From positions 1 through 27,794 of IMG/VR virus record IMGVR_UViG_3300013413_000021: DNA of 27,794 nt. One strand, given 5' to 3'. This document shows positions 8,696-11,796 of the stretch, one piece after another (positions within the stretch are counted from its first letter, which is position 1; each line of letters begins with the position of its first letter). The notes below the pieces were generated by a model. It saw only the letters and a program-made list of their open reading frames with translations. It made no database searches and was not told the DNA's origin. Both the position numbers and the translations under genes were made by a program. The DNA comes from a virus (Duplodnaviria; Caudoviricetes).

Positions 8696-8962
8696 CTAGG
8701 CCTCGTAGTAGCCGCGGGCGCGGTTTTTTTGGAGCACGGATTCCATGGCCAGCTCCACGTCGGCGCCCCTGCCGGCCAGGATGTGGTGCATGGTCTCCGA
8801 GACGTGCTTGACGTCTCCGGTCTCCACCGCGGCGTGCTGGAGGTCGCCCTTAAAAAGGGCGAGGCCGACCTCCAGCACCTCGGAGAGCAGGTGCCACCAC
8901 TGGCGCCAAAGGCCGTTGCGGATGAAGCGGGTGCGCGGGAACTGGTACAGGTTTTCGCTCAA
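8696..8962 (-). CDS. MazG-like NTP pyrophosphatase-fold protein
   Basis: HLLSEVLEV...VETGDV...KNRARGYY (ExxE...ExxD pattern); TTG start overlaps the intI stop. Confidence 0.6.
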
Positions 8963-10125
8963 AGGGTTCCTCCTTGCGCTGCGGCGGCTATGATCTTGCC
9001 GGCGGCCTCTGCGACGGTGAGCCCGAGCCTGGAACCGAAGGCGACCAGGTAGCGGCGCACGTCGTCGCTGATCCGGACGGTGACCGAGTCGGCGGTGCCG
9101 GTGAGCAGACGGTCCAGGGGGCTGCGGGTGTCGAAGCGCTTGACCATGACGTGGGTGTAGACCTCGGTGGTCTTGACGTTTTTGTGTCCGAGGTAGTATT
9201 GGACCTTCCGGATGTCGACGCCGTCCTCCAGGAGGTGGGTGGCGAAAGAGTGACGCAGGGTATGGGGGTGGGCCGGCTTGTGGATACCGGCGGCGTGCAC
9301 GGCGGATTTGAACGCCTCCTGGACGGCGGAGACGTGCAGGTGATGGCGGCCTTCTTTGCCGTCCTCTCCCGCATAGCGCTCAAAGGCGGGAAAGAGCCAC
9401 TGCCAGCCGAGGCTTTTGGCGTAGGCGGGGTATTTCTTAGCCAGGGAGTCCGGCATCTCCACGGTGCCCCAGCCGGCGCCTAGATCGGTATCGTGCAGCT
9501 CGGCGACCCGGGCGATCTGCTCCTTGAGCGGGCAGATCAGCGACTCGGGGAGCGGCACCGCGCGGGAGTTACCGTGCTTGGAGTCGTGCAGGATGAGCTG
9601 CCGCGCGCCGAAGTCCACGTCTTTGACGCGCAGCTCTAGGCAGTCCACCTCGACGCGCAGGCCGCAGCCGTACATGAGGGCCGAGGCGAGCCAGTAGACC
9701 CCCTTGAGCCGGGAAAGGATCGCCGCCACCTCCTCGCGGGAGAGCACGCAGGGGAGATGCTTCGACCGCCTGGCCCGGAGGGCGTTGACGTCTCCGACCT
9801 GGATGCGCAGCACGTGCCGGTAGAAGAACAGCAGGGCGTTGAAGGCCACATTCTGGGTGCTGGCGGAGATATTTTTCTTCTCGGCCAGGTAGGTGAGGTA
9901 TTCGCGGATCGCCTCCTCCGCTTGGGAAAGGGAGTGGTTTCTCGCCTTCCAGAGGATGAAATCGACGACATAGGCGAGGTAGGAGCGGCGCGTGGAGGGG
10001 CGGCAGTGGCGCAGGGTGAAGACCTGTTCCAATTGTGCCAGGAGCGGCGCGATCTGGCGGCCTTTCAGTATCTCCTTATCAGAGATCGTCTGTTTGCAAA
10101 TGCCCGGTATGGCGTACGTTTCCAT
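8959..10125 (-). CDS. intI: Integron integrase (IntI-type tyrosine recombinase) with C-terminal extension
   Basis: [22 protein letters not shown], IntI-specific insert [10 protein letters not shown]...[26 protein letters not shown]...[18 protein letters not shown]. Confidence 0.92.
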
Positions 10126-10133
10126 GGTTTCCT

Positions 10134-10217
10134 CCTTTGCGAGTTTCCGGCAATTATACCGCCGTGCAGAGTTCGCTTCTTTCCGGCTGGGCCTTTCCGG
10201 CGCCCTTTGCGACTTTC
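10134..10217 (-). promoter_or_regulatory. Putative intI promoter with direct repeats
   Basis: Minus-strand TATAAT at 10153-10158; CCTTTGCGA(G/C)TTTC at 10134 and 10204; TTTCCGGC at 10144, 10180, 10194; no good -35. Confidence 0.5.
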
Positions 10218-10280
10218 ATTGTCGCCTCTCGGCAGAGATCTCGCGCAGTTGCGGTACGCCTGATGCGAGATGCACCGGGA

Positions 10281-10307
10281 GGGTGGCTAGTTATGTAATA
10301 GTTAAAC
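10281..10307 (+). other. attI-like recombination site
   Basis: GGCTAGTTATGTAATA-GTTAAAC: GTTRRRY core at 10301, non-palindromic, ~175 bp upstream of intI, bordering the first cassette. Confidence 0.62.
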
Positions 10308-10475
10308 CAGATTCGGATCTTCATGCAGGGCACAGATGCTGCCTGTCTCAGGGTTACAAGCGCAGCCTGCTCGACCCTTCAGCCTGTCCAATGGCCGCAC
10401 CGCCTCTGCCGCTGGCGGATTGACCGTCTCCACGATCCAGTAATCCGTGAGAACTACCTCGTCTTGGCTGTTCAT
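10302..10475 (-). CDS. Cassette 1 ORF, 57 aa hypothetical with a Cys/His cluster (absent from the ORF track)
   Basis: MNSQDEVVLTDYWIVETV...CACNPETGSICALHEDPNLV; purine-rich RBS; TAA coincides with the GTTAAAC core. Confidence 0.7.
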   Translation of the reverse strand: MNSQDEVVLTDYWIVETVNPPAAEAVRPLDRLKGRAGCACNPETGSICALHEDPNLV

Positions 10476-10494
10476 CCTCTCCCTCCCCTCAATG

Positions 10495-10542
10495 GTTTAA
10501 CCCGCGCTTCCACCCTGCGGGTGACGCGCTGTGCCGTTAACG
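10495..10542 (+). other. attC-like site 1 (48 nt)
   Basis: GTTTAAC-CCGCG-CTTCCACC-CTGCG-GGTGACG-CGCTGTGCC-GTTAACG; extra C in the left L box; GGTTTAAC is the exact complement of GTTAAACC at the cassette start. Confidence 0.68.
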
Positions 10543-10959
10543 AGATTCCACCTGCACCGGTTCCAGATAGCGATACAGTGCCGTGGATCTCTTTTTTCTG
10601 AGCCGTTTTGTTCTCTCGCTGCCTGGCACCCGGCCCCGCTCCCGACGGTATTCGCTCGCCAGAGAAATGAGAAGTTGCCGGTGAAATGTCCGCATCGCAT
10701 ACCCGAGCTGATGAGCGGCATCACGGAAAATGGAGGATACATTGCCGAAAGCCCTTTGAAGTTCGCATTTCTGGCAGGTTGTGTCCTGAGACAGCTTGAT
10801 CTCGCACCCGCAACTGATGCAGGCGTTTTCCCACTCAGGATGTCCGACCAGGGATGCGCGAATGTGAGCAGTGATACGTTGTTCCTCAGCGTACCTATCG
10901 CTAACAACGCCCTGGACACGGGCGCGGAGTGCGCTGATATTTGCCGCTGAAATGGTCAT
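10537..10959 (-). CDS. Cassette 2 ORF, hypothetical zinc-finger protein
   Basis: ATG at 10959 with AAGGAGG; CISC...CQKC; stop in the GTTAAC core at 10536. Confidence 0.7.
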   Translation of the reverse strand: MTISAANISALRARVQGVVSDRYAEEQRITAHIRASLVGHPEWENACISCGCEIKLSQDTTCQKCELQRAFGNVSSIFRDAAHQLGYAMRTFHRQLLISLASEYRRERGRVPGSERTKRLRKKRSTALYRYLEPVQVESR

Positions 10960-10973
10960 GGTTTTTCCTCCTT

Positions 10974-11008
10974 GGCTCACCGCGCTGGTCAGGGCGCAAC
11001 CGTTAAAC
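10974..11008 (+). other. Degenerate or truncated attC-like site 2
   Basis: GGCTCAC-CGCGC...GCGCAACC-GTTAAAC; intact right core, eroded left core, only 35 nt. Confidence 0.4.
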
Positions 11009-11203
11009 CGGGAACAGTCCCGGCTGTTTCTCTGCCTCTTCTCTCGCCTTCCGTGCTTGTTCCTGCTTCTTGCTCATGCCGATGGCTCCATGTTCAGTAC
11101 AGGAACCGAGACGCCGATCATCTACGCGGTGCATGGTATGGCGGCGACAGGTAGGGCACCAGTGCATCACTTGGCTGGTGTTGCGAGTGTAGTGCTGGCT
11201 CAT
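11003..11203 (-). CDS. Cassette 3 ORF b, small zinc-ribbon-like protein
   Basis: MSQHYTRN...WCPTCRRHTMH...CTEH; ATGA overlap with the upstream ORF; stop in GTTAAAC at 11002. Confidence 0.68.
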   Translation of the reverse strand: MSQHYTRNTSQVMHWCPTCRRHTMHRVDDRRLGSCTEHGAIGMSKKQEQARKAREEAEKQPGLFPV

Positions 11204-11739
11204 GGTCGCACCCCCGCATCCAAAGGTCGCACCCAATCATGGTTGTCGGGGTGGCGCGTCAACAACTTCCGCTGCCCCAGATATGTCTCAGCCTGAGAGA
11301 TAAACCCGCGATCATCATCGTTGTCAGGACTCTGCAGGTCATACCATACTGGGCTGCCGGGGCCGTTTTCATGGTGACCAGCGCAGATGCACTCTATGTC
11401 AGAGCGGGCGGCGTGGTAGGCTATCTCGCGTTCCAACTCATTCTGTTTAAACATTCCCTCGACTTGGTGGCAGATCGAGCCGATCACTGTCCCCGCACAA
11501 CCGAGTAGAGTCTCGTCAGACTCAGGAGTGGAAGCGCCAACCAGATTTGCAAGACGGCGCAAGCGCTTGGCGTCAAAATTGTTGGTGCCAACTGCGAAAT
11601 CGAGGTCCTTTCGCAGCTGGTCAATTTCCTCCACGGCATCTGCAATAATGTCGCAGGTTTTGTTGACGTATTGTCTAGTGGACATCTGCGACATGCGCTG
11701 AACCAGTTTCTCAGCTCTTTCTTTGATTGTTGCCATCAT
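11200..11739 (-). CDS. Cassette 3 ORF a, hypothetical phage protein
   Basis: 179 aa; GGAGGGG RBS directly next to the ATTTAAC inverse core. Confidence 0.7.
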   Translation of the reverse strand: MMATIKERAEKLVQRMSQMSTRQYVNKTCDIIADAVEEIDQLRKDLDFAVGTNNFDAKRLRRLANLVGASTPESDETLLGCAGTVIGSICHQVEGMFKQNELEREIAYHAARSDIECICAGHHENGPGSPVWYDLQSPDNDDDRGFISQAETYLGQRKLLTRHPDNHDWVRPLDAGVRP

Positions 11740-11749
11740 CCCCTCCAGG

Positions 11750-11796
11750 ATTTAACCCCTCGCTCGGCCTACCGTCCAGCTCAATTATCGTTACAC
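11750..11796 (+). other. attC-like site 3 (47 nt, weak inner pairing)
   Basis: ATTTAAC-CCCTC-GCTC...TATC-GTTACAC; nearly the same length as site 1; left core is 6/7 complementary to the cassette 3 start. Confidence 0.42.

Follow-up and report, generated by a model that had tools for sequence, protein, structure and literature searches.

Integrons have been treated as bacterial devices in which the choice of recombining strand puts cassette genes under the cassette promoter Pc (PMC5027507, accessible text). For phages, a survey of 10,705 genomes reported three complete integrons, one In0 and 17 clusters of attC sites lacking an integron integrase (CALINs), and read the complete ones mainly as pieces captured from hosts or from class 1 integrons (Qi et al. 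2023, PMC9892861, accessible text). Here we describe an integron-like locus in a stretch of viral DNA of 27,794 nucleotides, IMG/VR record IMGVR_UViG_3300013413_000021, the whole of which we call the window; its 27.8 kb span the early region and the head region of a temperate phage of lambda-like type. On sequence comparison we consider it very probable that the window holds a complete phage-resident integron whose genes are flipped with respect to their attC sites, and which would insert, excise and reorder genes on the early transcript. The same reading applied to the family of such phage integrons is firmer still. The published phage elements have in common with the locus the presence of intI, attI and attC in temperate phages, methyltransferase cargo and arrays without intI, and their integrases are 35-40% identical to that of the window. 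The accessible parts of PMC9892861 mention neither a conserved phage-context clade nor systematic gene reversal nor an integrase tail, and its list of 17 CALINs may show reversed genes.

Canonical integrons, such as the class 1 system (IntI1/attI1/attC) and that of Vibrio cholerae IntI4, share with the locus the IntI family and fold, an attI that lies upstream of intI in opposite orientation and has an accessory box, the G/TT crossover, and attC boxes in the order R''-L''-L'-R' with an extra base at position 16. Unlike them, the locus has bottom-strand cassette genes, no role for Pc, residence in a phage, an L'-R' spacer of 8-9 nt, many attC sites shorter than 57 nt and a ribbon-helix-helix (RHH)-like tail on the integrase. 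In 'inverted' (Treponema type) integrons, it is intI that is reversed, and it stands ahead of the array. Those elements also have intI co-directional with the cassette genes, but here the layout of intI, attI and attC is textbook, the genes within the cassettes are turned, and intI comes after the array on the transcript. A sub-clade with 'inverted' integrases is mentioned in the accessible text of PMC8352920.

The integrase gene (Table 1), flagged in the initial annotation as an intact IntI-type gene, is one: its product scores 338.6 bits with TIGR02249 (cut-off 265) over the whole profile (positions 1-315). Its best match in the PDB is IntI4 (2a3v), both by sequence (E 5e-60) and by fold (Z 27.2, root-mean-square deviation (rmsd) 3.0, 294 residues aligned), in a gap-poor alignment that includes the IntI-specific insertion. 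The residues R157, K183, H288, R291, H314 and Y323, which we take to be the catalytic ones, are all kept, and the start codon is preceded by a strong ribosome-binding site (RBS). The phage has its own tyrosine integrase at 22326-23537 (91.1 bits with TIGR02249), and the intI product is therefore not its integration enzyme. Residues 1-30 of IntI (window 10036-10125) form an N-terminal extension with a conserved DN-x-I-L-K-like motif, common to the tail-less homologues P0084-P0120.

The attI-like GTTAAAC noticed earlier upstream of intI proved to be the R box of an attI. This motif is conserved upstream of intI, in normal orientation, in 14 of 14 aligned relatives, where a third box, which overlaps a TATAAT-like hexamer, comes next, ahead of the intI RBS. 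We infer from the sequence that the ATTATAC box of the window may act as the accessory IntI-type box. The GTT cores listed at 10301, 10536, 11002 and 11790 are all present, and the three units that they bound are cassettes 1-3. The inverse cores at 10495 and 11750 held up, while the one placed at 10974 did not: this candidate (GGCTCAC) has no L'' partner, and the true core of the second unit is CGCTAAC at 10899-10905.

Table 1. Features of the phage integron locus (positions in the window).
Feature	Position	Strand	Details
MazG-like all-helical protein gene, 88 aa	8696..8962	-	start codon overlaps intI stop
intI, integron integrase, 388 aa	8959..10125	-	TIGR02249; PDB profile and fold matches; catalytic residues
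ribbon-helix-helix-like tail of IntI, residues ~342-388	8962..9102	-	structure matches, profile, model
putative accessory IntI-type box ATTATAC	10153..10159	+	GTATAAT on intI strand; overlaps TATAAT hexamer ahead of intI RBS
hairpin-rich insert, ~115 bp, between attI and accessory box	10170..10285 (edges approximate)	.	window only
attI	10289..10307	+	L box AGTTATG, spacer TAATA, R box G/TTAAAC; crossover 10301/10302
cassette 1, 235 bp	10302..10536	+	57-aa open reading frame (ORF) 10302-10475 on -, stop codon inside core
attC1, 48 bp	10495..10542	+	R'' GTTTAAC; extra C at base 16; L'-R' spacer 9 nt
cassette 2, 466 bp	10537..11002	+	140-aa ORF 10537-10959 on -, start inside attC2
attC2, 110 bp	10899..11008	+	R'' CGCTAAC (10899-10905); L'-R' spacer 8 nt; loop = RBS + ATG of cassette-2 gene
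cassette 3, 788 bp	11003..11790	+	ORFs on -: 11200-11739 (179 aa), 11003-11203 (66 aa)
attC3, 47 bp	11750..11796	+	R'' ATTTAAC; extra C at base 16; L'-R' spacer 9 nt; last site before primase gene

Each of the three attC sites forms 6 of 7 L pairs once base 16 is removed. A custom pattern scan, used in place of IntegronFinder or HattCI, found these three sites in 10126-11825 and two stray matches in total over both strands of the rest of the window; three sites were reached in none of 1,000 dinucleotide shuffles (968 gave none), a control that is optimistic because the geometry and threshold of the scan were set after the sites had been seen. Folding energy was dropped as evidence for attC, the hairpins being unremarkable against shuffles (z -0.4 to -1.3). 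A gapped version of the attC pattern matched none of 250 loci. Across the sites compared, 9 of 29 are shorter than 57 nt. An L'-R' spacer of 8-9 nt was seen in 19 of 22 matches of the clade of tailed integrases described below, in 6 of 83 other viral matches and in none of 29 from bacterial genomes; for IntI1, the shape of the spacer affects recombination efficiency (PMC2727003, accessible text).

All cassette genes of the window are opposite to the att top strand, a point absent from the initial annotation. The bottom strand is thus the coding one: genes start beside or inside an attC and are read towards intI, usually terminating at a core TAA. An ORF of at least 45 aa ends on a core TAA in 20 of 29 cassettes, including all three in the window, and an RBS with ATG lies inside attC in two of the 29, window cassette 2 among them. 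Orientation was called with an RBS-weighted classifier in arrays with at least one attC match, duplicates and match-less loci being dropped. On this count 44 of 52 viral arrays have their genes on the intI strand, with two canonical and six mixed or uncalled, as against 0 of 12 bacterial-genome arrays (11 canonical, one mixed; Fisher p 4e-10 for clear calls only, kinship ignored). Reversal was found in 11 of 11 tail-clade loci and 2 of 10 metagenome loci, and reversed arrays are spread over several IntI clades. An earlier classifier, misled by shadow ORFs, was discarded (reversed/canonical/unclear: viral 71/34/10, genomes 5/22/2). Promoterless genes on the top strand under Pc were found neither in the window nor in any of the 11 clade arrays; since the genes of all 11 lie on the bottom strand, we regard the layout as a variant and not as a plain integron.

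The cargo of the relatives is of phage type, with methyltransferases upstream of intI in L001, L004, L009, L013 and L086, and thymidylate synthase. The four cassette proteins of the window have no family match, and for the cassette-2 protein no homologue was found by protein search (1 of 12 candidates, which is itself) or viral scan. A 38% homologue of that protein is encoded at L006:10397-10672, outside any array, in a transposase-bearing phage, where it comes right after intI in place of the MazG-like gene.

Evidence that cassettes have been inserted comes from the att sites themselves. In a circular cassette R'' and R' are complementary, so that after insertion R'' is expected to match the start of its own cassette. 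Among 29 cassettes from 11 loci, R'' was the exact complement of the first 7 bases of its own cassette in 23, and the neighbouring R', put to the same test, in 4; 100,000 permutations gave a mean of 2.7 and a maximum of 11. The scan itself fixes four of the seven bases compared, and the count retains two L010 sites that were probably missed or false. We read the complementarity as the footprint of IntI insertion. As for polarity, upstream of intI 26 of 27 attC-like matches (52,954 bases, 15 loci) are on the strand opposite intI, and 26 of 27 carry the extra base on the attI-proximal arm, while downstream of intI there were three matches in 75,000 bases. Two further phage records, located by attC pattern search, hold backwards arrays with an attI-like site, of seven cassettes (L272, whole locus) and two (L269:1340-3020), and there the R''/start match is perfect in 7/7 and 2/2. 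No intI was found in either record (completeness 61% and 95%), and the same search recovered intI in 5 of 5 control records. By eye, the L272 array adjoins a lysozyme-like ORF.

Cassettes also change position between phages. A thymidylate-synthase cassette stands at position 1 in L004 and at position 5 of 7 in L272, the copies being 75-76% identical from the base after G, and another cassette is common to L269 (position 2) and L272 (position 3); both cassettes start at G/TT. Upstream content varies among the relatives. In L001 and L004, whose IntIs are 78% and 73% identical to that of the window, intI, the next gene and the terminase are shared with the window, and the upstream cassettes differ. 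The expectation that related phages would vary here, with breakpoints at the GTT cores, is thus borne out. The locus comprises intI, attI and three attC, with cassette mobility at G/TT seen as a comparative footprint.

Some cassette genes occur in more than one setting. There are 33 distinct viral homologues of the 66-aa cassette 3 gene, of which only the L001 copy ends in the core of an attC match; the closest homologues (86%) end without a core. The L001 copy lies past the last detected attC and may therefore be backbone there. The same gene pair occurs in L004:6560-6760 and L272:1200-1390 with different attC sites, homology ending at the AAC of R'', and the L004 attC is 90-98% identical to attC sites beside other DNA in L269, L270 and L272. 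The sequences of this pair hint at attC swapping, a single case that homologous exchange could explain.

The relatives with DNA comprise 16 distinct loci, 15 from IMG/VR and one metagenome contig; the source scans covered 4/64 metagenome parts and 8/64 genome parts, so that locus counts are lower bounds. In a tree of 122 IntIs (FastTree, midpoint root; taking in about half of the genome loci, and metagenome loci where they had attC matches) the tailed integrases form one clade of 14 full-length sequences, including the window, with support 0.991. A large terminase follows downstream of intI in 12 of 13 loci tested, a count that does not take in L248-L250: two different head types are represented, eight terminases being of lambda-gpA type and four of another type, one with a transposase. 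In L086 a helicase and a primase lie downstream of intI, with no large terminase there. Across four pairs the ratio of nonsynonymous to synonymous substitution rates was 0.14-0.28 for the intI core and 0.29-0.57 for the tail; by this sequence measure both are under purifying selection. Comparison of sequences (phage-context clade, purifying selection, variable arrays) thus supports the earlier proposal of a domesticated integron that would capture and shuffle genes, 'domesticated' because the phage-context IntI clade appears to be under purifying selection. Among GenBank phages there was no close IntI relative, all nine records lying below 41% identity. The GenBank virus Rctr41k (L244, KX853513.1) carries at 4680-5678 an IntI-like gene (39%) that is annotated as xerD and points the same way as its neighbours, and the custom scan gave no attC match upstream of it.

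IntI continues for about 46 residues past the usual C-terminal helix, and this tail is present in 80 of the 120 best IntI homologues listed. It was absent among the 80 genome loci kept from the 8/64 parts scanned, a weak negative, and some tailed proteins are named from metagenome-assembled genomes (MAGs). Three RHH chains match the tail over 42-45 residues with Z 5.5-5.6: PutA52 (2rbf; Z 5.5, rmsd 2.4, 43/44 residues aligned), the MazE9 N-domain (8imh; Z 5.5, rmsd 2.0, 42/43) and Rv0298 (8u12). These domains and the tail have in common a strand-like segment and two helices; unlike them, the tail is attached to a tyrosine recombinase, following its C-terminal helix, and its dimerisation and DNA binding are predicted. 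A profile search matched 3h87_C (E 0.006), an entry listed as uncharacterised that we take to be an RHH antitoxin, and an atlas search with the tail gave no usable match. An RHH fold is likely for the tail. Weighing against this are the middling structural Z-scores and the weak Pfam matches of RHH type (E 0.08-0.25, 1/14 members each). A real if lesser possibility is that the tail is an extension for oligomerisation or stability only, neither a DNA-binding RHH nor related to the long spacer. The middling scores would fit it, as would the monomer model, which has an extended segment followed by two helices and no strand, and the 8-nt spacers found also beside tail-less viral IntIs (6/83 matches); moreover, tail and spacer are of one ancestry, and their co-occurrence therefore counts as a single event. 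Against it stand the near full-length alignment of three RHH chains, the profile match and the retention of the tail in 80 of the 120 homologues listed. The C-terminal helix of IntI1 is reported to connect subunits and to make the synapse more stable (PMC11641012, accessible text), and a dimerising domain behind it would therefore be well placed for synapsis or for nearby DNA.

On the favoured reading of a phage-resident integron with flipped genes, and by the known chemistry of IntI, attC would form a hairpin from its bottom strand, which IntI would recombine with double-stranded attI at 10301/10302; replication would resolve the attC x attI junction, and each new cassette would therefore land beside attI. 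Single-stranded attC could be supplied during phage replication. The primase, cassettes, intI, MazG-like gene and terminase are co-directional, and read-through from a lytic early promoter would therefore express the cassettes without Pc: a leftward early operon with a putative promoter would read the cassettes with the newest last. The predicted RHH tail may dimerise and bind DNA close to attI, its likeliest target being the accessory box that overlies the intI promoter or the sequence next to that box, with self-regulation of intI or a steadier synapse on long-spacer attC as the outcome. Phages such as L269 and L272, which lack intI yet have an array and an attI-like site, might borrow IntI from a co-resident phage. 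A bolder version, which we hold to be doubtful, is that phage integrons work as cassette factories and use a private code. IntI would build cassettes from ordinary phage genes, with the core at the stop and attC at the start, and swap attC at the AAC of R''; the RHH tail would read long-spacer attC that host integrases handle poorly, and the pool would be shared, including with phages lacking intI.

Several observations count against an active integron of this kind. A promoter scan ahead of intI found no full sigma-70 site. The window attI is split from its accessory box by the 115-bp insert, and its L box AGTTATG departs from the G(G/T)ATAAT-like boxes of the family. At 48 and 47 bp, attC1 and attC3 lie under the minimum of the reported range of 57-142 nt (PMC2727003, accessible text) and show no folding advantage over shuffles. 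In 18 of 29 sites the bottom strand would carry C as its extra base in place of the conserved G. The R''/start match is perfect in one of the three window cassettes and has one mismatch in the other two, and the custom attC scan was blank in most other loci.

Such wear bears on the alternative that the family is active and the window copy switched off or in decay, attI having been crippled by the insert and the altered L box so that IntI could at most excise cassettes or act on other phages. The insert, unique to the window (it has no Rfam match and no match in the fetched loci of relatives, and Rfam was blank for the array too), the divergent L box, the two mismatched cassettes and the weak attC3 hairpin (-3.5 kcal/mol) all speak for it. 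Yet the cassette adjoining attI is the one that matches perfectly, intI is intact with its strong RBS, and the closest relative, L001, has a divergent L box and perfect footprints. We hold decay of this copy to be somewhat unlikely, while its present activity, judged from sequence, could go either way; decay would in any case be compatible with the family-level reading.

Far less probable is that the locus goes back to a single capture of a bacterial integron by an ancestor and persists as a frozen passenger, the differences between arrays reflecting ordinary phage mosaicism. Such an origin would suit the published phage integrons, mostly captured host or class 1 pieces (PMC9892861, accessible text), the wear on the window att sites, and a 66-aa cassette gene that is mostly a plain phage gene without attC. 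It sits poorly with purifying selection on intI, with perfect insertion footprints in 23/29 and 9/9 cassettes, with shared cassettes that start exactly at G/TT, and with phage-type cargo in an orientation unlike that of bacterial arrays. Least probable of all, and largely refuted by the sequences, is that ordinary cassettes were put in upside down by top-strand recombination, or the whole array inverted with respect to intI: top-strand recombination does yield inverted cassettes at low frequency (PMC5027507, accessible text), and a TAAC box closes each gene when read on the gene strand, just as in normal cassettes, but the extra base on the attI-proximal arm and the core match fix the att top strand independently of the genes, R'' pairs with the start on the attI side and not the other way, and the attI motif upstream of intI is in normal orientation.

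Downstream, the intI stop overlaps the start of the next gene (TTGA at 8959-8962), as the initial annotation had stated. That gene follows intI in 15 of 16 relatives and occurs without adjacent intI in L259, L260 and L263; L260, a phage record 93% complete and without intI, has a lone backwards attC upstream of it (3158-3219). Its 88-aa product has invariant E28, E31, E47 and D50 and a three-helix model (predicted local distance difference test score 63.5). It gave no Pfam or PDB profile match; its atlas score is 0.95 and its 10 best family matches all fall in the MazG/PRA-PH set, and we call it MazG-like, from language-model features only.

The gene families of the window bear out the placement of the integron between primase and terminase of a lambda-like prophage. 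To the left lie capsid, decoration protein, protease, portal and gpA-type terminase genes; in the middle are two primases and repressor-like genes; and beyond the second integrase are host-like genes. The primases form a tandem pair at 11826-15624 (zinc-finger DnaG-like; P4/D5-type) that is present in L004 too. Between repressor and integrase, at 20834-22318, are + strand genes of low GC content (37-47%; DUF4468, bPH_2), possibly lysogenic-conversion or defence genes. A partial tRNA and a terminator-like hairpin lie directly 3' of the phage integrase (23561-23680); the tRNA match (Rfam E 0.032) is under the gathering score and by eye resembles the 3' half of tRNA-Pro. This segment is probably the prophage attachment-site duplicate, a partial tRNA being expected at a prophage junction. 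The best-ranked homologue of a flanking gene with an organism name is from a Geobacteraceae MAG (53% over 55%).

In a literature search made mostly without subscription papers, we found no description of reversed-cassette phage integrons or of an RHH-tailed IntI, and the accessible texts of PMC8352920, PMC9024848, PMC13492144, PMC13366799, PMC5371416 and two 2026 preprints contain nothing on a phage reversed-cassette layout. A phage family with flipped genes would mean that att polarity can be uncoupled from gene polarity, and a phage integron would offer a site-specific mechanism for gene turnover in phage accessory regions. How cassettes first arise is described as largely unknown (PMC5371416, accessible text); one gene seen both as a plain phage gene and core-ended, an attC at a gene start and a gene pair with two attC sites may be clues to their origin. 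The tailed IntI with its long-spacer sites could, in addition, give an orthogonal recombination system.

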